Assembly: GCA_036172245.1 (NCBI GenBank) | Contig: JAYWIR010000050.1 | Location: 62,001 to 126,000 of the forward strand | DNA length: 64,000 nucleotides | DNA from: Raillietiella orientalis | Taxonomy: Eukaryota | Direction of reading: 5' to 3' | Shown here: in pieces, positions 5,761-49,800 of the stretch | How positions within the stretch are numbered: position 1 is the stretch's first letter | Layout: the number at the start of each line of letters is the position of its first letter | Notes under the pieces: model-generated | What the model was told of the DNA's origin: nothing | The model's input: only the letters and a program-made list of their open reading frames with translations | The model's database searches: none | Made by a program: the position numbers and the translations under genes

Positions 5761-5810
5761 TACTAAATATTATTGATGGATTTTAAGTCCAGTGCATTAA
5801 TTCTGCCATA

Positions 5811-5815: not shown

Positions 5816-6960
<1,145 letters not shown>

Positions 6961-10684: not shown

Positions 10685-10730
10685 CGACGCCTCCTTGACA
10701 CTGGGCCGGCCCAGTGTCAAGGAGGCGTCG
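10685..10730. repeat. Perfect 46-bp palindrome with no spacer
   Basis: CGACGCCTCCTTGACACTGGGCC|GGCCCAGTGTCAAGGAGGCGTCG. Confidence 0.97.
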
Positions 10731-14770: not shown

Positions 14771-16099
14771 TTGGGATGCCGAGCAGCTCGCACCATCGCT
14801 TCAGTCCTCGTGGAAGGACGCTCGGGGTCGTGGCGTCCGTTAGCTTTCCTATGGTCTATCCGCTCATCTTCTTCTCCCTGCCTGCGATCCGTCCACGACG
14901 TACGGCTGCTCAAAAGAGCCCTTCTTAGAAAAGACAGTGCCGTAGCTAGGGGGGTCGTGTCTGCACATGTGCTCCTGGTGGGACACTTTAGTATCTTCCG
15001 CAGTTAGCAGCGGCAGTAGTTGGAGAAACACAGACAATTTCAGCTGTCACTTTAGGATTTATTCAACTTCACTCACGTATCTGTTGTTTCCTCTAGCCAC
15101 GCGCGAGAATTCGTGGGACTGCATACAATCCAGATGTTCTACTCCTTCAGCGTGGCTACACGTCCGAGGAGGAGGTCGCATCTTCTAAGCTTCCACCTGC
15201 GGCATAGAAGATGAGACTCAAGTCCTTCCGTCCGGATACACAGTGGGCGAGCAAGCGGGCCGGAACGCACCAAGCAGGGCCATCTCTTCCTGCTGCGAGG
15301 AAGCAGGTGTCGCGACCCCACACTTTACGTGCGGACGCAGCGCCCGGTGCGGTCTAAAGGAACACCGCTAATGCGGACACAGCCCCTACAGCAGCGCCCT
15401 TTCCAGCCACAGGGGCAGCGCCGCTCACGAGGATGCAGTGCCTCTCTCGAGAGCAACAGGAATCGCGTACGCCTGAACGGAGGCAGCGTACCTACAGACA
15501 GTCAAAAAAAAAATTCCGACCCCCACGAAGGCAGCACTATCTCCGAGGGGCGAAATAAACTGCGATGCACAGGAAGACTGCTGAACGAAGGTGGAGGAGG
15601 AAGAAGAAGACTCAACCTTTCAACTCCTCACAGCTTCTTAGCGTTCAGATAGGTGGTCGCAAAATAAGGCTGAGGCACTTGCCTCCTAAGCTGTCGTCCT
15701 CTCGCCATTGGATTGGGAAACTCCTGCCGTGGCTGGGGGAAAGACGATTTAAGCAGTAAGCGCGAATACGCCGGCGGTATATGTGTCCCAGCAATCCGGA
15801 AAACAGACAAATCGCCTGTGCTTCGCCCGACTGTCGGATTTCCATTCGAAGTCAGACACCCCGAGAGCACGGCGCGACACCTGCGCAGAAACGCGTACGT
15901 GCCTCTCCAAGACGCGTGGTTGTCGAGGCGAAACAGTTTCCAGGAAGCAAAGAGGAGGGGAAGGACCGCGCCTGTGAGCTACCGGCAACAAGCTGCGCGG
16001 CGACTGACAGCGGTCACCAATCTCAGACATCTGGCGCTCTGTCTCGTGACCGCTCGGGGGATTATGTCAGAAAACACAGGAGGATTGTTAATCCGTCCA

Positions 16100-16797
16100 C
16101 CTGCACTCACGCGGGCATCGCACAACGATTCTCCACCGTCACCCACACTTGTTTGAGCTCACTTTGGTGTCTTTGAAACCCTCAGCAGTGGTTTGACCGC
16201 CTCCACAACGCGTGGGCAGTGGCGAATTTTGCGAGGACCGCAACGACTTGACGGTCCTGCAGGCCCTTTTTTACTCCACTTACCCGTAGCACGAACGACT
16301 GGTGCGCTGTGGAAGGGAGTATATTCTGACCATGAATGAGCAGCAGTTGTGCAGCAAACGTGAGGAGAGCGTCTTTCCTGGACACTTTCCAGTAGCCGCA
16401 ACCACTCATGGACATGATGTACTCCAGCTGGCTTCCCTTCTGCATTCCAATTCGCTCGAGTTCCTTACCAAACTCCCGCCCAACCCGCTCAGGCATGAGA
16501 ACACACACCTTATACCTGAGTGCAGGCGTGTAGCCATTAGCCACGTACGACTGTGTCTCAGGGCTGTGGGGCGAAGATCTATTCGCAGCCGCAGGGATGG
16601 CGACCTGGTCACATGTCCTCGCCGTCGGCGAGGAAAGTAGCTTCTTGCTGGCGGACGACCTCGTTATCTCCGGAAGGGAAAATGTTCCCCTATCCTTTTT
16701 TCAATCTTTCCTTGCAAGCTCCTACCGCACAGGCACTGGCACAGCGAAATGACAGAAAACTAAGCCGCGCACGGAGCGATGCAAAAGCAGTTCCCGC
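16100..16797 (-). mobile_element. Tx1-like 5' end and ORF1 (gag-like) fragment
   Basis: PALRYKV...GREFGKELERIG homologous to 32619-32987; 5' motif at 16781-16797. Confidence 0.7.
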
Positions 16798-18105
16798 GCT
16801 ACGAGCTAATGCGAGTGACGGGCAATGTCCCGGAGAAGTTTCTATCAGCAAGAATGAGTCTCCAGCCGAAAGGTGGGGACATACGCCAGCTAAACAACTG
16901 GCCTCCCATCACCTTGGTGAATTCGGACGTCAAATTGTTCTCGAAATTATGGGTCGCGCGGCTAGGGAGAATCGCCGAGTCCTTGGTAACTCCGCAACAG
17001 ACCTACGCTGTTCCTTGGCGATCCATGGACGCGAATCTCTTCTTCGCGCGAACATGGTTCGAGTTACAGCAGCCCGTGGCGCAGCCAAGCCAGACAGCTA
17101 AAATCGCCGATGCCAAAGGTAAGCGGCGGTGTTCAAGGCACGATGGAACGCCGAGCGCCTTAGCGGTCGCCGTCGATCTCTGCAAAGCGTTCGACAGCGT
17201 AAACCTGGACCTCCTTCTGGAGCTTCTGGGACGCTTGGGCCTCCCAACGCACCTCATCGCCTACTTGCGCTCCTGCTGGGGCCACGCGTTCTGCTGTATC
17301 TCTTTCATCGGGCGCCACGTGTACGGCATTCCCATACGGCGGGGTATCAGGCAGGATTAAGCCCCCTGCTCTTCAGCATCTTCTTTGAGTTGGTGCTGAG
17401 GGCGTACAGGTTGACGCTGGCCAACCTGCCGAGTTCCTGTCCGGGAACACCGGCCGTGGCCGCCTACGATGACGACTTTCTCCGGTTGCTGCCAATGTCC
17501 ACCCAGGCGTCCATGCTCGAGGACTTCTTTGAGCTCATTTCCGGGGGAGTTGCGTCCCGGAACTGTGCCAAATGCGCAGCGGTGGAATCGCTTCCGCATT
17601 TGCTGTTTGAGTGCATTGCCCTCCAGGAGCTGTGGCGACGGCTGTTTTCAGCGCTCCTGCACCCTGGACACACCGCAATGGATTGGATGCGCCGCTTCTT
17701 CACGCGTGGCGGCCTATCTCTTGGGGCGGTCGTCGCAATCATCTGCTGCGTCCTCGCCACTGTCAGGGCCCGCCACGTATTGCAGATGCGAGCAGTCCCA
17801 ACATCGGTTCCCGACACCGCAGCCTGCAACCTGCAAATGGCTGCCGGGTGGCCACACCTGGGAGCAGAAGTGAGGACGGAGATCGGCGGCATTCACCGCC
17901 GGCTCTGAGAATAGAAACGGTTAGAATGCGTACCCCTCTCCCCGCCCTCCCACCCAATTTATTTATTTATTGTCCCACCCCCTCCCGTTCCGAACTCTCA
18001 GTGTGCCCGGCCTGCGTTCCGGGAAATCTACTCCCCATTTTCTGTTCCCCTTGCCTGGGAACACAGTTCCCATTTGATATTATAAATAAACGTCCCTGCG
18101 CAACC
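16798..18105 (+). mobile_element. Tx1-like RT fragment, internally deleted, joined to zinc finger and 3' UTR
   Basis: PKGGDIRQLNNWPPITLVNSDVK, AVDLCKAFD, GIRQ, AYDDD, CAKC...ESLPHLLFEC. Confidence 0.88.
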
Positions 18106-18107
18106 AT

Positions 18108-19193
18108 TTAATAAACGATAACGCTGCATTCTTTAATCTGCTCGCTTGCCTGCTGTTTTTTCTGGCGGTACGCGAGCTTTTTCTCTGATGTTCTCTCTTT
18201 TTTTGTCTTTTTGGCCGTTGCCACCTGCCACCCATGCTCTTGGCCAGATCCCTCGACTTGTTCCGCGTTGTTTGCCGGGGTCTTGGGTGCGGCCTGGGCC
18301 TTGGGCGCGGGTGGCACAGCCTTCGCGGCAGCTTTCGCCGCCAGCTTTTTCTCCAGCAGCCGGGCGCGTTTTTTGAGGTTTCTCTTGGAAACCACCCGCA
18401 CTGCTGCTTTTGGGCACACCTCCCTCGTGTGACCCATTGTGCCGCATACTTGGCACTGCACGTTGGGACATCTCTTTTTGAGGTGGCCCGACGTATTGCA
18501 GAAGCCGCAGTATTTCGGCTTCCCCACATACCAGAGGTCGACGGTTTCGCCTTCGACCACCAGTTTGTGGGGAAGGGTGCAGCCCTCCCGAAAGGTCACA
18601 CGTGCAGCCGTGAGGCCGTGTTGCATCCCCGTGTAGTTCTCAAAAGGACTAACCTTCGACCACTGCGCGTGGACCTTTCCATATTCTTCCAACGCGGCGC
18701 GAACCTGTTCTTTGCGCATCCGCGCGGTGACGCCTAATAGGTGGACCACCATGCTGCGGTCCGCCGTAATAGGGAGGAGCCTGCGCGTCCCCATCACCAC
18801 GGGGGTTTTAAGCAGTCGTTGGACCAGCTCTGCTTGTTTGCAGATGACCTCAACGTACTGACCCCCACCGCGGATGGTCATAGCGCTGAGCTCCTCGTCT
18901 TTCACATCGAGAGCGCTCATGCCCTTCGAGAAGGCGCGCGCGCTCTCTAAAGTATAGAGATTGCCTACTTTGTAGAACAATGAGGGGTTATACCCTCCCT
19001 CCACATAGGCGTACAATTCCGTCGCGATTGCAGGCGATGGCGCCGACACGACGGCGCTACACGCCCGCGCTGCAGCGGGGACGTATTCTGTGGGGGCGGA
19101 TGCCCCCACCTCCATCGCCACTGGGGGCGACGTTGCCGCCGCCCCCTGGCCATCCCTGGTGGTCGCGTCAGGCATCGCTGCCTTATCGACCAC
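18108..19193 (-). CDS. Retrotransposon ORF1 (gag-like) protein with two CCHC zinc knuckles, open 361-aa frame
   Basis: CGFCNTSGHLKKRC and CQVCGTMGHTREVC; basic C-terminus; 5' motif at 19248-19260. Confidence 0.9.
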   Translation of the reverse strand: MVDKAAMPDATTRDGQGAAATSPPVAMEVGASAPTEYVPAAARACSAVVSAPSPAIATELYAYVEGGYNPSLFYKVGNLYTLESARAFSKGMSALDVKDEELSAMTIRGGGQYVEVICKQAELVQRLLKTPVVMGTRRLLPITADRSMVVHLLGVTARMRKEQVRAALEEYGKVHAQWSKVSPFENYTGMQHGLTAARVTFREGCTLPHKLVVEGETVDLWYVGKPKYCGFCNTSGHLKKRCPNVQCQVCGTMGHTREVCPKAAVRVVSKRNLKKRARLLEKKLAAKAAAKAVPPAPKAQAAPKTPANNAEQVEGSGQEHGWQVATAKKTKKERTSEKKLAYRQKKQQASEQIKECSVIVY

Positions 19194-19284
19194 CGAACCA
19201 CACGACGCTTTTACTGGGGGAGACTTCCTGGCACGAGGAGCACAGAGAAAACACGTCCGCCCTCGAGCGCATAAGGCGTTTGAT

Positions 19285-21643
19285 TTTCACCTGGATTTCG
19301 CCGAGGCGTTTATTTCAACAATTAACATTTACAAAGACGTGCAGTGGCTGGACCATTGCTCCAGCTACGCACGAAGAAATACAGAGTCTGCCGCGTCACC
19401 GGCTCACAGACCGGTACGGTTCACCACGGCAGAAGGGGGAAGAAAAAAAACAAAAAACAAAACAAAAAAAAAAGAAAAGAAAAGGTGGGAGGTTACGGGA
19501 AGGGATCACTCTAGCTGGTGGGGCCGTTGCATCCTTTGCAGGATGCCGGCAAGCTCCTTCTGTATTGCTGGATCCAGATGGGGCCATCTCTACGCTCTCC
19601 CTCGAAACTGGGAGGCTGGCTGGATGGCACCCTGGTCGCGTTGTCCTCCCGTAGCCTTTCTCCAGGCGGTGACGATCCCGGGAAGGCAGCACAGGGATGC
19701 CAACAAGGCCGCTGGCACAAGGGCGTCGGCAACGAAGAGGGCTTACAGAACGTCCCTGGGGTTGCCGCAGGGGATTCCGATGGCCGCGGCAGAGCGGAAC
19801 CAAAGGGGCCGAAGGGCAACACAATCCATTAGCAGGTGGGAGAGGGAGTCACGTTCCCCAGACCTGACGTAATTGTTGTCCACTGCTCCCCAGGTCCAGT
19901 GGTGTCGGCGGGAGTTGCAGGGGAGTCCCCAGTGCTGCAACAGGAGAGCCGACTTCTTATATCTTAAGGGGAGGGTGGAGGTGTTCATGAGTACCGGGTG
20001 CCACTTCAAACGTTTAATGGGAACGTCGTGCAGCGCGCTTCAGCAAAGAAGTCCATGGGGAGGCGTACTCGGGGTGGCAGCGTCAGTCAGCTGACCCGTC
20101 TTCCACTCTCTTATCTTCTTCTCCTTCTTGGAGATTGTCACTGTAACCTCCCACTTCTCCGCAACATTTCTGTCCAGATCTTCCTTCAGGGAGGGCAGCG
20201 CAGCAGCGAAGGGGGTTCTTCCTGCCCACGCTCTCTTCTTAGGATTCTCCAGGATCTCACGGAGCGTGCAACTCCCGTAACCCCCAAGCAGAAACCGTGT
20301 TTTGGGTTGGGAGCGTTGCAGGCCGAACTGTCCATACGTTCGAACGGTTTCCTGCACCCAGGCGCTACCGTTCAAAGGGCGACAGGTGATCCATCCTTGA
20401 TTTTTCCAAATGAAGGCAGCAACCCTCCGCAGCTGTAGCCCACATCGGTAGTTGCGGGAGCGATGGAGTGTAAGAAAGGACGTGAGTCCCTTCTTCCCGG
20501 TGGCTTCCTTGACGAGGAGACGTGCAGGGACGCACCAACAGGTGCACGACAACTCTGGAACAAGTGCCGACATTCGGAACTGGAGCTGAAGCTCCAGCCG
20601 CTCCAGCGTCAGGAGGCCCAGGCCACCGTCCCGACGAGGAGCGCACAAGTCCTTTAAGCGGACTCGGGCCCTCCCGTTGCCCCAAGGGGCGATACGGAGG
20701 AGGTCCTTTCTGCGCTTTTTAATCCTCTCTGTGAGGGGGCAAACAAAAAGCAGGGGGCGGAAGAGAGGAGCCGCGAACGTATTCCAAACCGCGGCCCGTT
20801 CAGGCAGGAAAAACCTGCCGCCTCGGATCGGACCGATCGCCATCTCTACTTTCTGGAGGCAGCCGGTCCACGCTTCCGCAGGGGAGTAGTCTTCCAACGG
20901 CACACCAAGGTACTTGAAGTACCGTACCGTCGGGATCCCCAAACGGACAGAGTCCTGCTGCCCTGCCCACGCCGCACCAACTGGCATCACGGACGACTTC
21001 GCCCTGTTCACCGTAAGTCCGGTTCCCCGATGCAGCAGGTCGAAGAACTCCTCTACCGCCGAAGCCGGGGTGGACATAGGGAGCAGCAGAGGAAGGTCGT
21101 CTGCGTACGCTGAAACGGCCGGCGTACCGGCACAGTCGTGCGGCAGGTGCGCCAGAGTTCCCTTGTACGCTCTCAGTACCAACTCAAAGTAAGTACTGCA
21201 GAGCAAGGGGCTCAGGCTGTCTCCCTGCCGGATCCCACGCCGCACCGGGACGCCGTGCACGGTCTGCTCACTGAAAGTAACGTTGATGAGCGCGTCGCGC
21301 CAGCTGGAGCGCAGATAGGCCGCTAATGAGGCCGGGAAGCTTAAGCGTTCCAGAAGCTCCAGAAGGAGATTCTGGTCGACGGAATCGAATGCTTTGCGCA
21401 AGTCGACTGCGACCGCAAGGGCTCCCTCCCCCACCCGACCATCCGACCCCTTGCCGGCGCACGCACCGGAATTCCGGCTGCGCACCAAGCTCCTTTCATG
21501 TTTGAGCTCTCGCCAGGTGGAAGCGTGGAACAGGTTTGCCTCCATGCTTAGCCCGGGAACAGCATATGTCTGTTCCGGGCTGATGAAGATGTTGGCAACC
21601 CGTTCCAGACGCTCTGCTTAAACCTTAGCCAGCAACTTGGCGT
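19285..21643 (-). mobile_element. Tx1/L1-like ORF2 (RT to C-terminus) with 3' end
   Basis: PEQTYAVPG, AVDLRKAFD, GIRQGDSLSPLL, YADD, KYLG, DGGLG (ORF 20040-21545); zinc finger; ends CCAGGTGAAA. Confidence 0.95.
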
Positions 21644-22404
21644 GCCGACGTGTTTTTTCCGCGCTCTTCCGCGCCTGTTGTAAAGGCTTTCGTTGCGTTA
21701 ATGTTTGTGTGTGGTGCATCTGCGGTGTCCAATGGCAGAAATGCCTGAGGACACCGCGATGGAAGTCGGCGGGGGAGAGGATTGTTCCTCTCCCTAACCC
21801 ATTGAGGTGGGGGCAACCGCCCCCTTAAAAAAGGGGGCAACCGCCTCTCCGAAAACGAGGGCTACCGCCACCTTGAAAAAGGGGGCAACCGTTGCCTTGG
21901 AAAAGGGCGCAACCGCCCCCTTGAAAAAGGGGGCAACCGCGTCTTTGGATCCTTCCTCGGCAACGACGAAGACCTGAAGCTCAGTGGCTATGGCCCCATC
22001 TCCTGCAGCCCTTGCAGAACAGCGCGCCTACCTTGAACAAGGATACAAGCCGTCCTTGATTTACAAGGTAGGAAATCTGTTTGTGGGGAACACCGTTCGT
22101 AACTTTGAAAGAGAGTTACAGCGGCTGGATGTGAAAGAGGAAGACCTGGAAGGTCTCTCCGTGATGAGTGTGGGCCAGCGGGTGGAGCTGACTTGCAAAA
22201 ATGCAAGTCTGGCTCAACGCCTGCTAAACACTTCCATCACTCTGGAAGGCCGAAAGATCTTCCCTGTAACGGAGGACCGCTCCATTATTGCACACCTATA
22301 CGGTGTAACTCTGCGCATGACAAAAGCTGGCGTGCAGGAAGAGTTGAAAAAACATGGTACGGTGCACGCGCTCTGGACCAAGCCCAACGTCTTCCAAACA
22401 TATG
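21644..22404 (+). mobile_element. Tx1-like 5' end and ORF1 fragment
   Basis: GYKPSLIYKVGNL...DVKEEDL homologous to the 18108 ORF; in-frame stops upstream. Confidence 0.85.
21809..21946 (+). repeat. 24-nt tandem repeat (GATAPLKK) in the ORF1 N-terminus
   Basis: ~5.5 units of GGGGCAACCGCCCCCTTGAAAAAG. Confidence 0.85.
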
Positions 22405-22432
22405 CAGCGGAGCGCGGAAAACACACGTCCGC

Positions 22433-24801
22433 ACGCAAAGTTGCATGCCGAGTTGTGGGCTGAGCGTTTGGGGCGGGTGGCCGCTTCCGTGATCAGTCCG
22501 GAGCAGACCTACGCTGTTCCCGGATGAAGCATGGAGTCAAACCTGCTCCTCGCCAGCACATGGTGGCAGTTGCGACAACGCGTTGCTCAGGAAGGTCAAG
22601 GAAGTCTTGCGCTCTCCTCTGACCAGGATCATCGGCTAGAGGCTGGGATGGAGTCCGCGGGAGCCTTTGCAGTCGCAATCGATATGCACAAAGCATTGGA
22701 CTGCGTCGACAAGGAACTCCTTTTAAAGCTCTTGGAACGCATGGGTTTCCCGGCCGTGCTCCAGTCCTACCTGCGCTGCTGCTGGCGCAACGCGTCGATC
22801 AATATTGACTTTAGCGGCCGGCACGTGTACGGCGTGCCAATGCGCCGCGGCATCCGGCAGGGTGACACCCTGAGCCCCTTGCTCTTCAGCATCTACTCCG
22901 AGTTGGTGCTGAGAGCATACAGGGAAACTCTGGCAACCCTGCCGAGCTTGTGTGCCGGCACGCCTGCCGTTTCGGCCTATGCAGACGATCTTCTGCTGCT
23001 GCTTCCCGGGTCCATCCCGGCGAGTGCGCTCGAGGACTTCTTCGAGTTGCTGCGCCGCGAGACAGGCCTGGAGGTGAACAGGGCGAAGTCGTCCATGATC
23101 TTTGTCGGTTCGGCGTGGGCTGGGCGGTCGGACTGGATCCGCTTGGGGATCTCCACGAGCAGGTGCTTCAAGTACCTCGGCGTACCGTTGGGGGACTTCT
23201 GCGGAGCAGAAGCCTGGTCTGACCGTCTCAAAAAGGCAGCATTGCCGATCGGTTCGTTCCAAGAAGTCAACTTCTACTTGCATGAACGGGCTTCGGTGTG
23301 GAACGCGTTTGCGGCCCCCTTCTTCGTTCTTTACTTTTTGTTTGCCCCGCCCCTTATTTTATTCGGAAACGAGCAGCGGGCCTCCTTAGGACAGTCCTTT
23401 GGGGCAAAGAGATGTCCCGTGTGAGGCTCAAATACTTGTGCGCTCCACATAAGGACGGTGGACTTGGCGTTCTTACGCTGGAGCGCATGGAAGTGCAATT
23501 ACAGTTTAGGACTCTCGCTTTCGTGGCAGAACTGTGGGACACGCCCTGGTGCATCCCAGCACACCTTCTGGCCCAACGAGCCTGCGGATCCGGCGGACTT
23601 TTGTCGTATCTGTCTGCGCGCGTCGGCAGAAGAGCACACTGTGTCTCTCACCTGCGACGCATGGCCGTTGCGGTTCGGGAGAACGCCTGGATCTCTTGTT
23701 TCCCAGGGAACTACTCAGCCTGGTTGCACGAGTAAGTCTCCACCTGGGAAAGGATCCACGTTCCGGCGGGCACAACGAACACTTGCCTGAAAAGGCACGC
23801 TTGCTAGACGCTGCAGGAGATCGTGCAGTCCCACGAACAGCTTCTGTGGGCCCTGATAACCCCTCTTCCCCTAGTGCTGCCCTTCCTTGTGAATGCCAGG
23901 GACAGTAGCGAGCAGGGGAAATGGACCGTATCCTGCACCATAGGCGGCAGGACACAATCGATAAAGGCGTGGACATCTCGGCAGCTAGCTGACGCAGCGA
24001 CGCCGAGTGTCCCGCCCAACGGAATTCGACGCTGGGGAGAGCTACTCGGACTATCTCCGGAGGAGATGAAGTGGCCCCCAGCGTACTGGAACAGTGCATC
24101 CCTCCCCCTGAAATGGCAGGATGTGGCGTTGCTTGTGGTTCTCTGGGGATTACCATTCAAAGAACGCCTGCACCACACTACCCGAGGGGCTGTGGATCCT
24201 AACTGCGACCGGTGTGGGGGAAAGGAAACATTCCCCCACCTTGTCCTTGAGTGAAGCGCCCTCCGCCCTTTGTGGGAACGTTTCGCGGCGATCCTGGACT
24301 TGCGCGGATGCGGCCCAAAGGACGTTTTAAGGCGCCTCTTCTGTAGTGACGCCTTGTCCCCGCCCGCTAGTGTAGCAGTCCTCTGCTGCATCCGAGGAAT
24401 AGTGGCGGCTTGGAACGCCACCAGAAGAAGGCGTTAGCCAACCGGCAACGCCTTACACTGGACTCGCCTTTTCGTGAGCAGTGTCTCCAAGAGGCGCCAC
24501 TTAGGCCCAGACAGAACTCAGCTTGTCGGGATCCTGAATAGGATCTAGAGGACCTATCCACACGCAGAGTGATCCTGCTCTTGCCTTCCCACCCCTGAAA
24601 CATTTGTTCTTCCCCCACATTTGAACTTTTTGGTTCTTTTTGTTTTTTATTTCCCATCCCCGCGCATTGGAAAGACCTCTTCGGCATAGAGCCAACAACC
24701 AGCAAGCTGTTTGGGAGTGGTGAACCTTCGGGTTCGCCACGCGACAATTGTTTGTATTTTTATTTCAATGAAATAAATGCTTCGGCACATCCGGGTGTGA
24801 A
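22433..24801 (+). mobile_element. Tx1/L1-like ORF2 (RT to C-terminus) with 3' end, frameshifted
   Basis: IDMHKALD, GIRQGDTLSPLLF, YADD, KYLG, CDRC...ETFPHLVLE; ends ccgggtgtgaa. Confidence 0.95.
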
Positions 24802-26972
24802 TCGCCACGGCGCGCGTCACCATGCACGACCGGAGGTTCATGCCTTCGCAGATCCTCCTCTGTGACGTCGTCGTGTATATTCGGTTTGCCGGGCGAACCC
24901 CTGCTTGCGGCAACTGCGGGAAGGAGGGCCCCCGTCCGCGGAAGTGCCCAACACTCAGTTGCCGATATTGTAAGCTGCTCGTCCACTCGATTAACGAGTG
25001 CGCTGAGCTAAAACATGAGAGGAGGGCGAGAAACCTCTTTGCAACATCGCCGTCCGCGCCGACTCCATGCGCCCCGTCGTCGGGGAAGAAATCCGGCGCG
25101 AACGAGGTTCAGCAGTGGACAAGCACAAAGTCCGATTGCGCGGGCGTGTCCAAGAGCACTGCTCCTGAAAAGCCCGGGCAAAAGGACAATAAGCTCCTCC
25201 AAGCTACTAAAAACAAGACCCGAGCAAAGCATTCTGAAAAAAACCTCGGGCAGACTGCAAAACCGCCGCTTCTGTCCGCTCTCGCTTCGGAACGAAATAG
25301 CATTGGCACGCCCGGGAAGTCCACCAGAGCGTCGAAAAAGGGTTCGCGAGCCCCTTTGCACGCGACAAACAAGCCGGCCACTGCGGGCCGTACGCCAGCA
25401 AAGGTTGAAAAGCCTCGCACGACCTTCGAGAATCCCGCCACTCTGCCAGCGCCTTCCGGTAAGGAGGTGCTAAAGGTAGACGCGGCGAAGGAGACACTGG
25501 CCTCCATCGCCGTATCCGAGGCCTTGGAAAGCATGCGAAGGACCTTGGAAGCCCTCGCGCCCAACCGAGGCAAACCGGAAGGCGGTGAGGATGGCTGGAC
25601 CTTCGTCAAGGGAAAGAAGGAGCCCAAACCGCGCGATTCTTCCCACTACCCGATCAAAAAGGTAGGCGGGGTGAAGAGGCAGCCCGCGCGCCACGGAAGG
25701 CGCAAGAAAAAGCCTCTGCTGCCGCAGCACACGCCGTCGCAAACACCCGCGGCGAGAGGGGAGCTGCCGAAGCCGTGACTTCGAAAGGGGTATCGGCGAC
25801 GAAGACACCCTCTAAGAGTGCTGGACCAGCTCCGGGCTGCCAGCAAAAAAAGAGGCAGGCAAAACGCCCGCCGCGCGCGCGGAATTCGGACTCCGAGTTG
25901 GAGTCCGAGGGCAGCGCTAAGGCTCGCCAAGCCCCGGTCAAGGCCAGGGCTGCGCGCAAGCCAAAACTTGCCAGGCTAAAGTCTGATGCCGAGAACGGTT
26001 CCCGATGCTCCTCGGAGCCCGAGGCAATGGTCCTCGACTCCACCGAGCCAGCCACGAGCGGCGCGGCGGGGACAGGAAGCGCTTGCGCTCCCCCATCCGC
26101 CGTGCTCCCGGCTGATGCCTCGCCGGACGGGACGAGGAACGCACCTCCATGTCCGTAGCAGCAATGCGCGGTCTCGCTTCTTCCCGTCGCGTCCGAGTGG
26201 CCTGTTGGAACGTCAACGGGCTGCAGGACAACGTGAACAGGCGATTGGTTGCCAACGTCTTGCGCGACTTCGATCTGGCCCTGCTGCAGGAGATTCCCGC
26301 ACTCTCCGAGCAGCAAGCGGCCGATCTGCAAGTTCGCGCAGGCGGGACGCTCCATTGGAGGTTAGGCTCCCAGAATACCTGCGGAGTCGCATTCCTTGTC
26401 CGGGGCAGGGTGGCGGGAGCGGTGCGGAGCGTTTGTTTCTACGAGGAAGGTCGTGTGCACCAACTTGTTCTTAAGTGGTCCAAATCGTTTAATTTTGTAG
26501 TCACAAACGTGTACGCGCCGAGCGGCTCCGCGCGTCACACCGAGAAACTGGAGTTTTTCGAGAGACTGCGCGACCGCTGGCTCAGCAACTCCGGCCCCGA
26601 CGTGGCTTACCTCGTAGCCGGAGACTTCAACGTCCACGCGCTATCGGAGGAGTCTCACCGTCGCCGGGAAAAACGGCTGGTGAACGAGGTGTGCGCGTCG
26701 GTGCACGCCTCGAATTTGCTGGCTGACGATCCCGGGATGCGAGCTTTGCCGGATCATGTGTTCCTCGACGATCACCTGCATCGTCGGTTGGGTCGAAGAG
26801 GTCCCGTGCCGTCCGAGCTTTCCGACCACTACAGGCTGAAGTTTGAGCTACTCCCGCCTGGCAATGTCCCTCCGACGCACGTCTGGAGGTTGCCGGCCTA
26901 CTGGTTGTGAAATCCGGTGGCTGCGGAGCACCTCCGCCAGCATCTCCGGACCTTGGCCGTACGAGAGCTCGG
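24802..26972 (+). mobile_element. Tx1-like element: ORF1 C-terminal part plus APE endonuclease
   Basis: CGNC/CRYCKLLVH...C knuckles, low-complexity basic tail, then the APE ORF. Confidence 0.9.
26149..26910 (+). CDS. Apurinic-like (APE/EEP) endonuclease domain of ORF2, truncated
   Basis: WNVNGL, LLQE, NVYAP, GDFN, DH, SDH, WRL motifs. Confidence 0.92.
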   Translation: MSVAAMRGLASSRRVRVACWNVNGLQDNVNRRLVANVLRDFDLALLQEIPALSEQQAADLQVRAGGTLHWRLGSQNTCGVAFLVRGRVAGAVRSVCFYEEGRVHQLVLKWSKSFNFVVTNVYAPSGSARHTEKLEFFERLRDRWLSNSGPDVAYLVAGDFNVHALSEESHRRREKRLVNEVCASVHASNLLADDPGMRALPDHVFLDDHLHRRLGRRGPVPSELSDHYRLKFELLPPGNVPPTHVWRLPAYWL

Positions 26973-26973
26973 T

Positions 26974-29900
26974 TTTCACCCGGTTGCGCCGGGGCGTTTA
27001 TTCTTTCGAATAAAACAAACGTTGGTGGCTGACCAGGTGGTCCGACCACGCACTGGTATACAAAATTAAGCCTGCCGGGTCACCGGTTCGTATTCCGGTA
27101 TGGTCCACCACGACAGCAGAGGGCCCAAGGACAAAACAAAGAATAAAACAAAAATAAAAATATATAAAATCAAGATCTGGGGGGCACGGCAAGGGATCAC
27201 AGTCTGCTGTGGGGCCGTTACTCCTTTGCAGGATGCAGGCAAGCTGTTTTTGGATGTTTGAATCCAGATGGGTCCATCCTGTCGCCGTCCGCATCAATTC
27301 GGCTGCGCACTGGACGGCACCCTTATCGCGAGGTCCTCTCGTTGCTTTGCTCCATGCAGCGACGATCCCGCGAAAGCAGCACAGAGCTGCTAACGAGGCC
27401 GATGGCCGAAGGGCGTCGCAAACGAAGAGGGATCTAACTGCGTCTCTGGGTTTGCCACAGGGGATACCGATTGAGGTGCGTGAGGGACTCCCGTTCTCCA
27501 CACCTCGCACAATTAGGGCTCACCGCTCCCCAGGTCCAATGGTGTCGGCGGGCGTTGCAGGGGAGTCCCCAATGCAGCAACAACAGCGCCGACACCTGAC
27601 ATTTTAAGGGGAGGATGGAGGTGTTCATCAGCACCGGGGGACACTTTTACTGTTCCCGCGGAACATTTAGCAGCTCACCCCAGCGCAAAAGTCTAATAGG
27701 GGTGGTAGTCCGGGCCGCGGTATCGCAGAGAATTCCCGTTTTCCATTCCCCGATCTTTTTCTCCGTATGGAAGATTTTAACGTAAACATCCCATTTCGCA
27801 GCAGTCTTGCCGTTCAAATGTTCCGCGAGCGGAAACAGCAGTGCAGCCAGGGGAGTTTTTCTTGCCCACGCTCGTTTTGGGGGGCTCTCCAGGACCTCCC
27901 GAAGCGTCAGGCGGTCATTACGGGCGAAGAATTGTCTCTGCCCTTCTTGGGTGCGTTGCTGTTTGCTCCTTGCCCACGTCTGAATTGTTTCCTGCAGCCA
28001 TGCAGGTCCGTTAACGGGACGACAGCAGAGCCATTCTGCGTTCTTCCTCATCAGGTCAGGCACTCTCCGTAGCTGCAACCCGCAGTGACCGACTTGGCGG
28101 CGCCGACGGAGCGCAAGGAAGGATGACTGTCCCACCTTGCCTGTAGCCTGCTCGACGAGGAGACGTGCGGGCTCTCACCAACTGCTGCTCCAATATTTCG
28201 CCACTAGGGCGAGTAACCGAAACTGGAGCTGGAGCTCCAGTCGCTCTAGCGTCAGGAGGCCGAGACTGCCGTCCCGACGCAGAGCGCTCAAGTCCTCAAG
28301 CCGGACTCGGGCTCTCCCATTACCCCACAGGGCAATCCTTAGGAGGTCCTTCGTCCGCTTTTTAGTCTCTGTGGTTGCGAGCCACACACAAAGCAGGGAA
28401 CGGAGGAGGGGCGCCGCAAATGCGTTCCACACCGCGGCCCGTTCCGGCAGGAAAAACCTGCGGCCTTGGAACGGGCCGATCGCCGTCTCTACCTTTTGAA
28501 GGCAGCTGGACCACGCATCCAAAGGGAGATAATCACCCATCGGTACACCGAGGTACTTGAAGTACCGTACCGTAGGGATCCCCAAACGGTCCCAGTCCGG
28601 CTGCCCGGCGCACGCCGCGCCGATTGGCATGACGGACGACTTCGACCTGTTCACCTCAAGCCCGGTTCCCCGACTTTGCCGGTCGAAGAACTCCTCGACC
28701 CCCGATGCCGGGGTGGACGTAGGGAGCAGCAGCAGTAGGTCGTCCGCATATGCTGACACCGCGGGCGTACCGGGATAGTCGCGCGGCAGGTGCGCCAGAG
28801 TTCCCCTGTACGCTCTCAGTACCAACTCGAAGTAGGTACTGAAGAGCAAGGGACTCAGGCTGTCTCCCTGCCGTATGCCGCGTCGCACCGGTACGCCGTG
28901 CACGGTGTGTCCACTGAAAAAGATCTGGATGAGCGCGTCGCGCCAGCAGGATCGCAGGTAGGTCAGCAAAGAGACCGGGAAGCCCAAGCGTTCCAGGAGC
29001 TCCAGGAGGAGCCTCTGGTCGACACAGTCGAATGCTTTATGCAAATCGACTGCGACTGCGAGGGCTCCCTCCCCTCCCCAACCATCCCGTTTCCTAGCGG
29101 CGGACATTCCGGAAGTCAGGTTGCCCATCCTGACTCTTTCCTGTTGGAGCGCGAAAAAGGTGCTGGCGAGGAACAGGCTGGCATCCATGTTCCGCCCGGG
29201 AACAGCATACGTCTGCTCCGGGATAATGAAGCTTCCCGGTAACCGCCCCAGGCGTTCAGCCCACAATTTCACCAGCAACTTGGCGTCCGCGTTTATCACG
29301 GTAATCGGCCCCCATTTGCCCATGCTCCGAAGGTCTCCTCCCTTAGGGAGGAGACGCACCTTTGCCGAACGAAACGAGGCGGGGACGTCGCCCGTTTTGC
29401 GGATCAGCAAGGTGAGTTTCTTCACCAGAGGAGTGAGCTCTGCCGCCAAACATTGGAAAAATTCCGCTGTTAGGCCGTCCTCCCCTTGAGCCTTCCGCCT
29501 CTCGAGCTTTCCGATGGCCCAGATGATCTCGCTCATCGTGAAAGGCTCGTCGAGGGTCTTTCTATCTTCCTCTCCGATCGCCAAAGCGCCTTCCGGAAGA
29601 AGAAGTTGCGAGACATCCCGTTCCGGTGGAGCGCGCGCGTACAGGGAGGAGTAGAATTTTTTTAATAAGCCTTTTACCTGGGCGGGGGCCGAGTGCTCCG
29701 AGCCCTGGTCCTCCAGTAAGCTGGCTGACCCGGATTGCCACGCCTGCCTCTCGGCTCCCGCACGTATTCGGCTAGCCTGCGTACGTCTGGTGTTCGCGCG
29801 TAACATCGAGATAGTAAATACCATCTCTCGTTACGCACGCTTTCACCAAACCCGGCAGGCAGGAGGTTCATAGGGAACTCCTCGCAAAAATTCCGGACCG

Positions 29901-30535
29901 AGCGCTTGAAGCGGTCCCATTCCTGAAGCGTCTGCAAGCTGAAACCTCGTATGAATCCGCGGAGATGCTCCGTGGCTTCCGGAAGTTTCAGACAGTCCCC
30001 CGGTAAGCGCCACGCAGATGACGACGGACCCCTATCGCGTGGGCGCACCTCGAGTACGATCCGGTCATGGTCGGACAGTTCCGACGGCAACTTGCCGCGC
30101 CTACCCACGCGTGAGCATAGGTGCTGGTCAAGAAACATGTCACCTATGCTGTCGGCCATTTCCGGATCTCGCGCGAACAAGTTGCGCGTGTGCATCTCTG
30201 CGCACAGCTCGTTCACACGGTCCCGAAGTGTGTCGGACGCACCTGACAGCAGGCGCAGGTTAAAGTCTCCTGCGATTAGGTGCGCTTTGCGCACTCCCGC
30301 TTCGTCCAGATATTCGCGTCTCAGGGTAAGGAAGAAATCTCTCCTCGCCTTCGCCCTTAGCGCGTCGCTGCCGCTTGGGGCGTACACGTTGGTAATGACC
30401 AGATCGATGGAGTCGGACCACCTGATGGTCAACTGCCAGACGCGACCGGCACTATCGAACCGTACGTCCTTTGCCGCAGCCTCGACAGCTGGACGAAGCA
30501 GGAACGCGACATTCCAAGATTTAACGGTGCCGCAA
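26974..30535 (-). mobile_element. Near-complete Tx1/L1-like ORF2 (APE-RT-zinc finger) with 3' end, frameshifted
   Basis: NVYAP/GDFN/SDH (29674-30432); KAQGEDG, LLPKGGD, VDLHKAFD, YADD, KYLG (28175-29824); ends CCGGGTGAAA. Confidence 0.96.
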
Positions 30536-30539
30536 CGTC

Positions 30540-31373
30540 ACAGCAGCCGGACGGGTCAGCTGACTGACCCTGCCACTCCTAGTACTCCTCCTCATGAATT
30601 TCTGCGCCGTTGCGCGCTGCTCGACGTTCCCATTGAACGTCTGAAGTGGCTTCCGTTAATTATGAACATTTATACCCTCCCCGTAGAATGGCAGGAGTCG
30701 ACTCTCCTGCTGCAGCACTGGGGACTCCCTTGCAACGTTCGCCGACACCACTGGACTTGGGGAGCGGTGAACCCCAATTGTGTCAGGTGTGGGGAACGGG
30801 ATTCCCTCCCCCACCTGCTTGTGGATTGTGTTGCACTTCGGCTTTTTTGGTTTCGCTTTGCTTCGGTCATCGGAATCCACTGCGGCAACCCCAGGGACTC
30901 TCTGAAAGCCCTATTCGTTGCTGACGCTTTTCGGCCAGCGGCCTCGATAGCGGCCTTGTGCTGCCTTCGCGGGATCGTCGCCGCATGGAGCACGGCTACG
31001 GGAGGACAACGCGACCAGGGTGACATCCAGCCAGCCTCCCAATTCTTGAGGATAGCGTCGCGATGGCCCCACCTGGATCTAAACATACAGCAAGAGCTTG
31101 CCGGCATCCTGAGAAGGATGCAACGACCCCAGCAGCAACTGTGATTCCTTCCTGTACCCTCCCACTTTTTCGTTTTTTTTTGTTTAGTTTTTTGTTTTTG
31201 TTTTTTTGTTTTTTCCCTTCCCCCTGCTGCGTTTTGGACCGTACCGGTCTGCGATCCGGTGACCTGGCAGACTCTGTGTTCGTTCGTGCGTGGCTGGAGC
31301 ATTGGTCCAGCCACTGCACGTCTTTGTAAAAGTTTATTCTCTCAAGAAACGTTTCGGCGAAATCCGGGTGAAA
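30540..31373 (+). mobile_element. Tx1-like ORF2 C-terminus and 3' UTR
   Basis: CVRCGERDSLPHLLVDC; T-rich UTR; ends CCGGGTGAAA. Confidence 0.9.
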
Positions 31374-33026
31374 GTCGAATGCTTCATACAAATCTACTGC
31401 GACTGCCAAGGCTCCCGGCCTTTCTCCCGTCCGTCCGCACTGGCGCTCGCAGTCGGCAGAAGGTCTAGCCGCTGTTCGGCTGTCCGCCGCAACGCGCTCT
31501 TGCAGCTGCCACCAGGTGCGCGCGAAAAGAAGGTTCGCATCCATGCATCTACCCGGTACAGCGTAAGACTGCTCCGGGCTTACCACGGACTCCGCCACTT
31601 TCCCTAGGCGCGTGACCTGATCGGAGGATACACGCGTTGCCTATGCGACCGCTAGGAGTTCTTCTGTAGCAGTTTCCTCCGTGGCCGCGGCGGGTGCTAA
31701 GTTCGCGCGCGAGGTATGTGCGTTTACAGGCTGTGTGCTGGTGGCAGTAGGCGCCTGGGGCATCTTGACCGCGGAGGGTTGAGATGGCGCGGAGTTCTTT
31801 GCCAGCGGGCGCGACTTTCCTGTGCCGGGTGAAGGGCCGCATGCCACTCCGTTATCCGTGCCCTTGATGCGAGGCTTTTCGATTACAAAGGCGAGAGTAG
31901 GATTTTTTTTCGCCTTCGGCACAATCACCCGTGATTTTCGAGGCTCGCTGCGACCTCTTGCGGAAGGGTCGCATTCTTCGCGAGCCTCCGTCGGTTCGGC
32001 AGCCTCAGACATCGTTACGACGCGCATTTTTGTTTTCCACCCCTTTTTTTTGGGGGGGGGAAGAGATAATTCTCTGTGCTTGCGCGCTCGCTGCTTTCGC
32101 GACGCTGTTCGAAGTTTTGAAGTTTGCTTTTTTCGAGTCGCGGCGTTCATTTTGCGTTGCGATACTTGCATCATTTCTGTGCTTTTTGATTTTAACCAGG
32201 AGTTCCGCGCACATTTATTTTGGCAATAGGCCGAGGGGCACTTCGTAATGCGGTGTTTCTATTGCCCGCATTCCGCACAGACACGCGTTTGCTCCGCCAA
32301 CCACAGGCAAACGGTCATTCCATCCACCTGCAGTTGTGTGGGCATTGCCCGGCGATCCGCCATCATTACTCGCACTTGCGCGAGTCCGCTGTGGTGGTCT
32401 TCGAAACCCTTAGCAGGGTGCGGCAACCTCCACAGCGCGTGGACGCTGGCGAATTTTTCAAGGACCTCAACGACCTGGAGGTCCGAAAGGTCCTTGCTCA
32501 GTCCACTCAGCCGGACAACGAACGACCGGTCCGTTGTGATGGATAGTATTTCCTGCCCACGAATGAGCAGCGGCGTGTGCAGCAGACGCTACGTAAAAAG
32601 AGCATCCTTACTGGACACCTAATAGTAGCCACACCCACTCATGGGCATGATGGACTCCAGCTGGCCTTTTTGAACTCCAATCCTATGGAGTTCCTGGCCA
32701 AACTCGCGCCCAACCCGCTCAGGCATAAGAACACTTACCTTATGCCTGAGTGCAGGCTTGTTGCCATTTGCTACATACGTCTGAAGCTCAGTGCCGTCGG
32801 GAGAAGGTCCCATCACAGCCGCGAGGGCAGCGACCTGGGCGAATCTCCTCGCTGTCGGCGAGGATAGTGGCTCCTTGCGAACAGACGAAGCCGCCATCGC
32901 AGAAGCAAATGCCGTTCCCTTCTTGCTGCTTATGTTCTTCTTTGCCCCTATTGCAGCACAGAAGCTCAGTAGATCAAAAACACACAAGAATCAGTCTTGC
33001 ACGGAGCGACGCAAAAGCACGTCCGT
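31374..33026 (-). mobile_element. Tx1-like ORF1 (frameshifted, ~31640-32990) followed by a short RT fragment (31374-31612)
   Basis: PEQSYAVPGR...AVDLYEAFD; gag homology with knuckle remnants; 5' motif at 33011-33026. Confidence 0.85.
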
Positions 33027-34210
33027 ACGTGGCCGACGCTGATGATAGAATGCGGGAATGTCCCGGTTTCCTTCCCCTCAGAGAAGGTGCGCCTCCTGTT
33101 GAAAGGCGGAGACTTGCGGCATCTTGGCAACTGACTTCCGATCACCCTGGTCAACTTGTATTTGCTTATGTGGGTCGCGCGGTTAAGAAATATCGCGGAA
33201 TCCTTGGTGAGCCTGGAACAAACCTACACGGTTCCCGGACGATCCATCCAGCATCCTTCTCGCGCGTACTTGGATGCAGCCACAGGACGTAACCTAGTGC
33301 ATGAACAGGCATGAGGGCTAGCAAATGCTCCTCCCGCACTCCCGCACGGAAGCGTTCGTCCGCGTACTTATGCCCTTCTGAGCCTACCCCATTTACATTA
33401 TAGCGGAGAGCAGGTCTGTAGCCCAGGACTACGTGGACCTGCAGCTGCGCATCGTCAGGGCGGCGTCCTTGTACGGCTGCTGCTGCAGCAACGTCTGTGA
33501 AGCTCCTCTCCGAAGGCGAAGGGCTCTCAATGGCTGTCGCCATGGGGTTCACTCCTGGAAGTACCGGAATCACAGGCTCGCCGACTTCCACGTTTGCTTG
33601 TACACTGCTCATCCTCAGGACTAAAAAGTGGGAAGCACAAGAGCAAACAAACAGCGGAGCAAAGGAACGACACGAAAACACTTCCGACTCTCACAGTGGC
33701 GTAGATTAAGGTCATCTTCCATCAGATGCGTTATGCGAACGCCCGTTTTAGTAAGCCATTCGCTTCTCAGAACAAGGCAAAGTTCTCTTCTTGCTTTTGC
33801 TCTTAACGCGCCATTGCCGATAGAAGTGCGCAAATTGCTGATGACTTGACCCTCGGAGTCGGACCACACCAGAGCCAGTTGGCCGACACTACAGGCACAA
33901 TCGAATCGCACTCCCTTTTCCGAAGATTCGAGGGCTGGCCGAAGCAAGAAAGCGATGCCTCAAGATTTGACGGTGCCGCAACGCCACAGCGGCCTCCCAT
34001 TTGATATCCGTTCGATTCTTACAGGCTTAATCTGCAGAGATCACGTGGATCTTCTGTAGTAGCATAAGGTCCAAGGATGGTACAGTGGCGGTCACGTCAA
34101 GTCTCTTGCCGTCTTTTCTCTCAACCCATTCATGTTTAAACAGGCCATCAGCAGACTGCGACAAGAGACGATTTTCGGCATTAAGTCTGAAAAAGTGGCA
34201 TTGCATCACA
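33027..34210. mobile_element. Nested fragments: RT (+, ~33027-33265), ORF1 5' part (-, ~33265-33686), APE (-, ~33690-34210)
   Basis: KVRLLLKGGDLR..PITL; YRPALRY; ALRAKARRE...DLNLR. Confidence 0.75.
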
Positions 34211-48420: not shown

Positions 48421-48759
48421 CATAAACGTCGGCCGCAACTGAGCATTCCCGGTCCTGTTCGTCGAGTAGACAAGCGGCTGCAGACTGCCAGATCTGGTTC
48501 TCGGCCTTGGCCTTGTACTCCCAAGATGACGGACGTCCGGACATCGAGAGAAAGTGCGGGCACGCCTACTCAGAAGTTCCTGGGAAGCAGGTGCAAAGGA
48601 AACAGAAAGCAGAACTAGCGGACAGAACTTTTCAATTCATCCCAGTTTGCGAGCTCGAGAGGAAGTGTGGTTTCATTGCTCGTAGGTCTGTGAAAGTTTC
48701 TTTTTTTCTGGCGTAAGAGTGAATTCGCAGGTCTGATACCATTACCAGTAAAGTTCAGA

Positions 48760-49800
48760 GGTCGACGTGTACATTGGAGGAGGGGACAATCCCCATTTAC
48801 TCTATAAGGTAGGCAATCTCTATTCCCCGGAGAGCGCTCGTGCCTTCTTTAAGGAGCTGAGAGCCTTTGGCGTACCGAAGGAACAGCTGAGGGCTATGAC
48901 CATAAGAAGTGGAGAGTAGTTCGTAGAGGTGATCTTCAAGATAGCAGATCTTGCTGAAAGTCTGCTACATACCCTTTTGCGGATGGGCAAACGTCGGCTC
49001 TTACAGATGACAGAGCACCGCTCTATAATGGTCCATCTGTTAGGTGTTACCATACAAATGCTCAAGTAGGACGTCCGCGCTAAGTTCGCAAAAGTAAATG
49101 CGGCTCACGAGATGTGGAGGAAATCATCTTCATTCGTGGATCATGCGAGGATAATGGGCCGCGAAGGCTGTACCTTACGCCACAAGATGGAAGTAGCCAG
49201 CAAAGCCGTTAACTTCTGATATGTGGCCTATGATATGATATGTTAACTTATTACGGCGGCCATTGTAACACGCCGGATCATTTTGAAAAGAGGTGTCCGC
49301 ACGTGCAACGCCAGCAATGCAAAGAAGCAGGGCACACTGGTCAGGTGTGCCAACAAAATCAAGTCCGCTTGCGACCTCAAGGAATGCAAAGATACGCGCG
49401 CCAACAAAAAATAAAAAAATTAGTAGCACGAGCCGCTGGTAAGGACGCGACTATCGCGCTCAAGGCAAAGGTCAACTCCGTGACCTTTGCCTGCGCCAAA
49501 CGTCGAGTAGGTCAAGGACGACATCCAGGAAGTTGGATGGCATGTACTCGAGTGCAACAGGTAGAAAAACATCGGAAAAAAAGAAAATAAAATCGCGAAA
49601 CGCAGCGATAAACAGCGCGAGCAACTCAAACTGTGCCACGCAGTAATCCAACGCGTCGCCGCCATCGACGAGGTTGGCACCCCTGCAATTGCTGCTGCCA
49701 ACGAGCAACCCATCGTTGGCATGTTTTTCTTTTTTTCGGACATATTTATTTCTTTTTGGCATATTTTTATTTCGGCACTTTGAATACATGTTTTCACTTG
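48760..49800 (+). mobile_element. Decayed gag-like ORF1
   Basis: YKVGNLY, GHCNTPDHFEKRCP, QQCKEAGHTGQVC; homologous to the 18108 ORF. Confidence 0.78.

Follow-up and report, generated by a model that had tools for sequence, protein, structure and literature searches.

A 64,000-nucleotide (nt) stretch of the Raillietiella orientalis genome (assembly GCA_036172245.1, contig JAYWIR010000050.1, positions 62,001 to 126,000; hereafter the window, numbered from its first letter) holds retrotransposon copies of which two end at the same nucleotide within the reverse transcriptase (RT) gene of a relative. Judged by their parts, namely an open reading frame 1 (ORF1) with CCHC knuckles, an apurinic/apyrimidinic endonuclease (APE), an RT and a probable zinc-knuckle C-terminus, these elements are APE-type long interspersed nuclear elements (LINEs), probably of the broad L1/Tx1 kind. 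Both 3' ends lie against the antisense strand of the A-F-D codons in RT motif A. The best reading of these junctions, from the sequence, is insertion into the coding sequence of relatives at recurring, mostly antisense sites. For the nest as a whole, we see an even chance that the elements target preferred sites in their relatives' ORF2 and strike regenerated sites a second time, with the head-to-head joints that are also found here being a separate matter. Self-nesting LINE clusters and double insertion at regenerated sites have both been described already; what would be new is a recurrent target in the element's own RT motif.

An earlier note on this DNA had proposed that subfamilies of such elements target the coding sequence of their relatives. 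Its evidence consisted of two 5' ends at the DAKL codons (21643/21644 and 22432/22433), two 3' ends at A-F-D (19284/19285 and 31373/31374), two 5' ends just before the LM..GNVP codons (~16797 and ~33026) and one 3' end in the APE-RT linker (26973), all of which can be read in the sequence. The proposal draws support from the A-F-D and linker junctions but not from the DAKL and LM pairs.

Insertions at RT motif A

Copy A (19285..21643, minus strand) extends from the DAKL codons to its 3' end and carries a 525-residue open RT frame, while copy C (30549..31373, plus strand) is 5'-truncated and extends from the C-terminal domain to its 3' end. With a slash marking the joint, the 3' end of A reads ...GGTGAAA/ATCAAACGC at 19285/19284 and that of C reads ...GGTGAAA/GTCGAATGC at 31373/31374; each adjoins the reverse complement of the A-F-D codons, and the nucleotide is the same in both. 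The flank of C is fragment G (31374..31640, minus strand), a solid antisense RT of 79 residues that is 59% identical to copy E (tblastx E value 7e-28) and ends exactly in ..GALAVAVDLYEAFD (AFD); its upstream limit is uncertain. The host flank of A is a remnant of 24 nt (19261..19284, in sense on the plus strand) with the codons ..VDLHKAFD, located between the 3' end of A and the first nucleotide of another copy, Z (18108..19260, minus strand), and we read it as one copy of a target-site duplication. When scored against the motif-A 24-mers of intact copies, this remnant is equalled or beaten by 0.57% of 20,000 random 24-mers of the window.

A and C are the closest pair of elements in the window, being identical at 672 of 816 positions (82%), while their flanks agree at 10 of 24 positions (binomial probability 9e-6). 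Elements this alike in flanks this different are therefore the result of two separate insertions into two hosts at one nucleotide, and not of one junction that was later copied. This is the only pair that passes the independence test, and it is here that the claim of the earlier note is best borne out. The same figures bear on an explanation without any targeting, in which the region is a recombination-poor heterochromatic dump where duplication, inversion and deletion shuffle old junctions and coincidences reflect descent and chance. The large inverted duplications of the window (4.5 kb and 3.6 kb, 88–98% identity) would suit such shuffling, but it does not account for flanks that are far more diverged than the elements they adjoin, and we regard it as improbable.

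The 5' end of Z falls at the same place. Z has a full-length 5' end at 19260, 24 nt from the A-F-D junction, at a mirror-image TCGAC/TG word. In intact copies these 24 nt are flanked by mirror-image words, ..TTCGAC/TG.. on the sense strand and ..ATCGAC/TG.. on the antisense strand, and the flanking TCGAY word is found on the left in all 4 intact copies and on the right in 3 of the 4. In the alignment, the 5' end of Z coincides within 1 nt with the second nick that we infer below. Taken together, the 3' ends of A and C and the 5' end of Z have, as far as the sequence goes, the geometry of a 24-bp target-site duplication.

A third break is located at A-F-D near the right-hand end of the window, where a 3' end (63163..63331, plus strand) is followed by ~7 nt and then, from ~63339, by copy J, an RT in sense orientation whose first bases are those just past the A-F-D codons. 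We also considered a long duplication spanning DAKL to A-F-D (~275 bp), which would join the 5' joint of copy X (see below) to the 3' joint of C. This was rejected on divergence, since identity is 63.6% between G and the matching part of A but 82% between A and C.

Paired junctions in the APE-RT linker

Copy B (26974..30548, minus strand) adjoins antisense copy F with its 3' end at 26973/26974, where F ends at the equivalent of residue 204 of the B APE. The earlier note had listed this terminus by itself, and it is real: the F protein at the joint, ..EHLRQHLRTLAVRELG, aligns with B's own ..EHLRGFIRGFSLQTLQ. To it we can add a matching 5' junction at ~48661, where copy N (48661..49648, plus strand; an ORF1 copy with an E value of 1e-44) begins directly downstream of an antisense host fragment (48573..48660, minus strand). 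This fragment encodes the APE-RT linker, LELANWDELKSSVR.FCFLFPLHLLP, and aligns with LQTLQEWDRFKRSVRNFCEEFPMNLLP of B (tblastx, 27 residues, 55.6% identity, E value 2e-7).

In the coordinates of B, the host of N begins 4 codons before the end of F. The two hosts overlap by these 4 codons plus 1 nt, or 13 nt, with the sequences CGAGAGCTCGGT and CTCGAGCTCGCA, which agree at 9 of 12 positions and surround the palindrome GAGCTC. An overlap of this kind has the geometry expected of a duplication, not of a deletion. Z and N also have similar bases immediately upstream (..TGCGCTCGAGG/ and ..GCGAGCTCGAGA/, respectively). The linker hosts are ~46% identical in their APE proteins, or unrelated, which again argues against a shuffled old junction. 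The best reading of the joints of B and N, on this geometry, is that they mark a second recurrent site for insertion into relatives.

Upstream of N, roughly 200 nt of antisense host (48450-48660) lie between the probable 3' end of a copy P (~48450) and the first nucleotide of N. This has the tandem architecture of A, 24 nt and Z with a longer spacer, the 3' end of P being approximate.

Identity of the elements

GC content is 55–62% from ~7 kb onward in the window, and by self-comparison most of the sequence there consists of diverged repeats. Pfam searches of the open frames identified an RT domain (RVT_1, PF00078) in B, A and a further copy, D (E values 1.7e-19, 3.3e-15 and 3.9e-16, respectively) and an endonuclease domain (Exo_endo_phos, PF03372, E value 3.4e-16) in F at 26116-26910. 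Fragments of APE and RT were mapped by scanning both strands with a profile made from 22 distant full-length ORF2 proteins. In B, profile positions 63-301 (APE) are followed by 382-889 (RT) on one strand; the elements thus possess an RT domain and an APE domain N-terminal to it in ORF2, as expected of an APE-type retrotransposon without long terminal repeats. B served as the coordinate reference, as it runs from APE residue ~60 to the 3' end unbroken through LM, DAKL and AFD. The 3' end is constant and the 5' truncation varies among copies, with limits at APE residue 60, at LM, at DAKL and in the C-terminal domain.

The ORF1 of Z is intact (392 residues, 19286-18108, minus strand) and follows a 5' untranslated region (UTR). 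It contains two CCHC knuckles of the form CX2CX4HX4C, CGFCNTSGHLKKRC and CQVCGTMGHTREVC, which were read from the translation and have no significant Pfam match. The zf-RVT match in the C-terminal domain of ORF2 is weak (E value 0.012; 16.7 bits against a cut-off of 27.5). Among long database matches, the best relatives of the RT reach just 22–28% identity and bear no clade names, and therefore no close family is on record.

From its sequence, the region at 11.6–34 kb, together with 46–49 and 61–64 kb, is a nest of diverged and apparently mostly dead LINE copies. Copies of the family lie within copies of the same family: the unit containing D in the ORF1 of the element X-F, B in F, and C in G, with E placed against Z. 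ORF length is a poor guide in these GC-rich copies, where long antisense frames often arise spuriously; one open frame of 405 residues (29927-31144, plus strand) lies partly antisense over the APE coding region of B.

Element termini and their orientation

The common 5' end of the elements is GCGGACGTGTTTTYTCYGCGCTCC by alignment; the element start is written GCGGACGTGTTTT.. and opens with the word GCGGACGTG. Allowing up to 1 mismatch, this word occurs 31 times in the window against 14.4 expected, a count reached in 0 of 100 shuffles. A 5' profile matches at 33025, 22432, 19260 (Z, E value 2.5e-4), 21644, 16794 and 36022/52540 with E values of 0.001 or less, and more weakly at 33686 (E value 0.5) and 48661 (E value 7). 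The last was accepted as a 5' end despite its score because ORF1 follows it and because it resembles 33686.

The common 3' end has a T-rich tract and two hairpin-like stretches followed by ..AATAAACGCCYCGGCG.AA.CC.GGTGAAA. By itself the word GGTGAAA shows no enrichment in the window (12 occurrences, 10.3 expected). A profile of the last 200 nt matches at 19285, 31373, 26974, 24800, 13192, 63331 and 11762, and two more 3' ends, at ~18109 and ~14085, were found by eye. Searching metagenomes with a 19-nt 3'-terminal word yielded 55 loci, with matches of only 19–33 nt that are chance matches in unrelated contigs.

With 36022 and 52540 taken as one duplicated locus, 8 distinct 5' termini were counted. 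Seven of the 8 adjoin antisense ORF2-bearing sequence: one lies 24 nt upstream of A-F-D, two are at DAKL, two at LM, one in the linker and one in a different RT family. This, too, is hard to reconcile with junctions that were merely shuffled, since we estimate that 6 of these termini fall in the ~900 nt between the linker and motif A, or ~7% of the strand-positions of a 6-kb element. The eighth terminus belongs to copy M (33298..33686, minus strand), whose first nucleotide adjoins the sense APE of copy H (33690 to ~34181, minus strand). We considered whether B and H share one 5' truncation (30548/33994) and rejected this, as the APE homology of H runs to ~34181.

Nine 3' termini are readable. 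Two adjoin antisense A-F-D, one the antisense linker, one the antisense end of ORF1 and one sense ORF1, and one adjoins the sense RT that begins just past A-F-D; the remaining 3 have no assigned flank. The flanks at 13192 and ~14085 were tried as further A-F-D remnants and rejected as not significant. The two sense-orientation counter-examples of the earlier note, the 3' end against sense ORF1 at 24800/24801 and the 5' end against sense APE at 33686, are both real. We regard the antisense bias as no more than suggestive.

Head-to-head joints at DAKL and LM

The remaining two pairs join a 5' terminus to antisense RT. At 21643/21644 the sequence reads CAACTTGGCGT/GCCGACGTG, with the 5' terminus of X immediately next to the (D)AKL codons of A in reverse complement. 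At 22433/22432, read on the minus strand, it is CAACTTTGCGT/GCGGACGTG, and the 5' terminus adjoins (D)AKL at the same nucleotide. X (21644..22403, plus strand) is a genuine full-length 5' end that is colinear with Z for more than 100 nt, with a 5' UTR and ORF1 to residue ~218. At 21760-21900, the N-terminal part of its ORF1 has short tandem repeats (GGGGGCAACCGCC..AAAAAGG), ~130 nt extra relative to Z.

The terminus at 22432 is of a different nature. It belongs to an inverted 5'-end fragment, X', of just 29–47 nt, and past X' the coding sequence on the plus strand is that of the X ORF1 (..VHALWTKPNVFQTY). This ORF1 resumes at 24801 (IATARVTMHD..), directly after the 3' end of D, as copy F (24801..26973, plus strand), which is X continued, from ORF1 residue ~225 through APE to the APE-RT linker, where it is cut by the 3' end of B. 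The two halves of ORF1 bound X' and D, and therefore X' and D are one unit (22404..24800, plus strand), consisting of X' to 22432 and an RT copy from DAKL (22433) to the 3' end at ~24800, placed in sense orientation in the ORF1 of X-F. As a caveat, the 12 nt that precede 22436 bear some likeness to the ORF1 codons expected there (TSAR versus TAAR); X' fits the 5'-end consensus much better (21 of 23). The DAKL pair, which the earlier note had offered as evidence of targeting, thus loses that role, since one of its two termini is a short fragment travelling with the D piece and not an element inserted into RT.

Both joints of the pair may descend from a single DAKL joint, to judge by the sequences on either side: X and X' agree at 28 of 38 positions and A and D at 190 of 291, a difference that is not significant (p 0.18), and co-descent of this kind would also suit the shuffling of old junctions. 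Another D-like copy is represented by a Logan contig whose match, with 32 differences over 283 letters, ends exactly at 22433, a hint of more copies that share the DAKL break. These public-run data comprise one run with 7% of the words and 463 short contigs, mostly less than 90% alike; of the 504 pieces and 366 loose ends, 8 and 6, respectively, were listed. G was examined as a third DAKL break and rejected, as it seems to continue through DAKL.

The LM pair was found to be a copied joint. On the left, S1 (16068..16797, minus strand) is a LINE 5' end with ORF1 to residue ~254, supported by the 5' profile (E value 8e-4), ORF1 (tblastn E value 4e-13) and the junction sequence. Its first nucleotide adjoins the antisense RT of E (16798..18109, plus strand), a 5'-truncated copy that extends from LM..GNVP to the 3' end with an internal deletion past ~17548 (RT profile positions 503-659, E value 1e-29), and whose 3' end at ~18109, placed by its own and its flanking sequence, adjoins the antisense end of the Z ORF1. 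On the right, their homologues are S12 (31857..33026, minus strand), a full-length 5' end with ORF1, and S13 (33027..33297, plus strand), an RT fragment from LM..GNVP. The 5' ends at ~16797 and ~33026 both adjoin antisense ...LM..GNVP, a 3–4 nt indel apart. The two composites are colinear across the joint (692 of 976 positions identical, ~0.74 on the 5'-end side and 0.57–0.73 on the RT side), and the pair is therefore one old composite that was later copied, the very case that the earlier note had named as its own refutation. A joint that behaves in this way is likewise what shuffling of old junctions would produce.

The duplicated 5' end at 36022/52540 was considered as a further LM-site joint and rejected: its flank is a different diverged RT, ~345 nt upstream of the DAKL-equivalent of that RT. 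The sequence at 36023-36800 (and at 51780-52194, minus strand), antisense to the 36022 5' end, is the RT of a more AT-rich LINE family (..NTIGEQFSKILVPRL..LAIVWIDTEDAFTSIPH..).

These observations also speak for a second explanation, in which the joints of the window are by-products of copy making. A full-length cDNA end would be fused to an inverted 5'-truncated cDNA or copy, by twin priming, by a template jump from end to end, or by read-out transcription that starts at an antisense promoter within a neighbor's 5' UTR, and the composite would then be propagated; shared break points would reflect descent or a preferred polymerase stop. The D unit, as a single insertion in the X-F ORF1 with an inverted 5' end and a segment from DAKL to the 3' end, is what this explanation predicts. 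So are the colinear LM pair, the Logan contig that ends at 22433, and the inverted and direct parts of X-F/A, S1/E and X'/D, which do not overlap in element coordinates. Twin priming is reportedly the source of L1 5' inversions, in work credited to Ostertag and Kazazian in 2001, and the D unit resembles its products in that an inverted 5' segment and a direct 5'-truncated segment with a 3' end form one unit. It differs from them in that the inverted part is the extreme 5' end (nt 1 to ~40) and in that the joint nucleotide recurs in two diverged copies. Classical twin priming moreover needs adjacent parts, whereas the direct part of the D unit lies ~3 kb downstream of the inverted part and the gap in X-F/A is ~640 nt. 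Inspection of the joint sequence at DAKL revealed no base-pairing microhomology and no snap-back pairing, which also counts against a by-product. Nor would by-products explain the A-F-D 3' ends in independent hosts, the 24-nt remnant or the 13-nt linker overlap. As an account of all the joints we consider it a serious contender but doubt that it is right. From their sequences, we take the joints at DAKL and LM for composite units that are separate from target choice.

Proposed mechanism of insertion

Returning to insertion at preferred sites in relatives, the A-F-D and linker joints suggest how it could proceed. The endonuclease would nick preferred short words with a palindromic core. In motif A, the word would be TCGAY/ on both strands, where ..GCA/GTCGAT.. 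and ..TTCGAC/TG.. mirror each other at a distance of 24 nt; in the linker, it would be GAGCTCG plus 2–3 nt on both strands, and the predicted position for 3' ends is ..GAGCTCGGT/. The 3' ends of A and C would mark the first nick and the 5' end of Z the second. Target-primed reverse transcription from the nick in the host sense strand would yield antisense inserts with target duplications of 24 bp or 13 bp. Such a duplication would regenerate the site, and a second hit would create the tandem joint of an A 3' end, 24 nt and a Z 5' end; older relatives would thereby be interrupted in their RT. The head-to-head composites would be made at integration, by an inversion or template switch akin to twin priming, or by read-out from a neighbor, and would then be copied.

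A third explanation is that the element is directed to a kind of chromatin, such as centromeric LINE arrays, and that its endonuclease needs just a TCGAY-like word of 4–5 nt, the motif A matches recurring simply since the word pair is conserved there. The bottom-strand nick contexts are compatible with so loose a preference (TTCGAC/ for C, TTTGAT/ for A, GGCGAT/ for D and CTCGGT/ for B), and junctions are also found in ORF1 and APE in both orientations. A parallel exists in Zepp clusters, described in passages of one paper as one per chromosome and possibly centromeric (PMC3446292). However, two sites each hit twice among ~12 classifiable junctions exceeds what a 5-nt word would give at ~15 TCGAY per 3.6 kb, although the excess is modest. 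We think regional targeting rather unlikely.

Several observations weigh against insertion at preferred sites in relatives. The junctions are very few and all stem from a single window, and a remnant of 24 nt is short. The two strands of the 3.6-kb copy B together hold 15 TCGAY words, and a short-word preference alone could thus repeat a site occasionally. No insert has both of its own flanks identifiable, and the duplication lengths were inferred by combining the junctions of different inserts. Other 3' junctions lie off both sites, namely that of D in sense ORF1 and that of E at the antisense end of ORF1, and the flanks of the 3' ends at 13192, ~14085 and 11762 match nothing. The nick words leave the DAKL and LM joints unexplained. 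When shared origins are collapsed, ~9 antisense events stand against ~3 sense events, which is not significant. Finally, junction copying is common here because of the large inverted segmental duplications in the window.

In its most specific form, the proposal is that an animal LINE lineage has an endonuclease that recognizes palindrome-cored sites on the antisense strand of its own ORF2 (VDLHKAFD/CVD and the linker GAGCTC), and that its copies inactivate older relatives, regenerate the site and build self-nesting safe-haven arrays. We advance this tentatively, as a possibility somewhat more apt to be wrong than right. If it is true, the window holds an animal counterpart of the algal Zepp clusters with a defined molecular target. 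It would explain how a retrotransposon can have a harmless landing pad, renewed by each new copy, how such an element competes with sibling lineages, and how arrays made only of transposable elements (TEs) arise, like those at some centromeres. The two palindromic sites, with predicted nicks on both strands, would also constitute a short endonuclease target. The recurrent head-to-head joints between full-length 5' ends and antisense RT are an unexplained integration product.

Comparison with known systems

The closest parallel is found in Zepp and Zepp-like LINEs of the L1 clade in Chlorella, Coccomyxa and Chlamydomonas. Zepp elements are said, in a passage of one paper, to target existing copies (PMC8226300), and as described in such passages they share with the present elements a GC-rich L1-type make-up and clusters of nested, mostly 5'-truncated copies. 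The host here is an arthropod-like animal and not a green alga. Unlike what the Zepp passages describe, junctions here recur at defined ORF2 codons, mostly antisense, and head-to-head joints are common. Among the papers listed in our literature search, which did not extend to the primary Zepp paper, we found no report of a LINE that recurrently targets, on the antisense strand, a motif within its own RT gene.

Double insertion at a regenerated target is known to produce TE tandems, and palindromic motifs inverted tandems, according to sections of McGurk and Barbash, 2018 (PMC5932611). Those tandems have the same order of 3' end, short target copy and 5' end as A, 24 nt and Z. The sections concerned deal with Drosophila TEs at generic sites and describe no LINE at its own RT codons.

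Several APE LINEs are sequence-specific: in the Tx1 clade, Tx1L inserts in Tx1D, Keno in U2 snRNA and Mutsu in 5S rDNA, and R1 inserts in 28S rDNA. The present elements resemble them in having a precise 3' junction, a recurrent target nucleotide, and a structured 3' UTR with a short A run instead of a long poly(A) tail. They differ in that the target would be their own coding sequence instead of a host multicopy gene or DNA transposon, and in that specificity is partial, at least 3 other 3' junctions being located elsewhere. The R1 endonuclease cuts both strands of its target, as stated in part of one study (PMC1919474).

Other features of the window

An RT fragment of another diverged lineage is located at 34540-34900 (plus strand). 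Its N-terminal region (..RLKDYFETLMSP..) is followed almost directly by motif B/C (..IRQGDAFSSILF..ADDLLFF), and it is an internally deleted copy. We considered whether this fragment, at 34624, starts at A-F-D and rejected the idea, as the start lies elsewhere.

The window contains two inverted duplications. The first is a 4.5-kb inverted repeat (6965-11444 and 56099-60597, 96% identity) that frames most of the window and has no APE or RT matches. The second (34810-38465 and 50138-56117, 88–98% identity) carries the duplicated 5' end at 36022/52540, and ~2.4 kb of it is present in the right-hand copy only (52889-55259).

The first 7 kb of the window (1-7016) are a block of mitochondrial genes in the invertebrate mitochondrial code, with nad5 on the plus strand and possibly nad3, then cox3, atp6, cox2 and cox1 on the minus strand. 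The block follows the arthropod ground order and has a GC content of 35% and a GC skew of +0.56 to +0.74. Its ND5 shares no more than 48% identity with sequences from pentastomids (Armillifer, Linguatula) and the branchiuran Argulus, and the host, to judge by this, is probably a pancrustacean without close relatives in the database. The cox1 gene is cut off at ~6965-7016, where a GC-rich repeat begins, and the block is either a recent nuclear copy of mitochondrial DNA or an assembly chimera.

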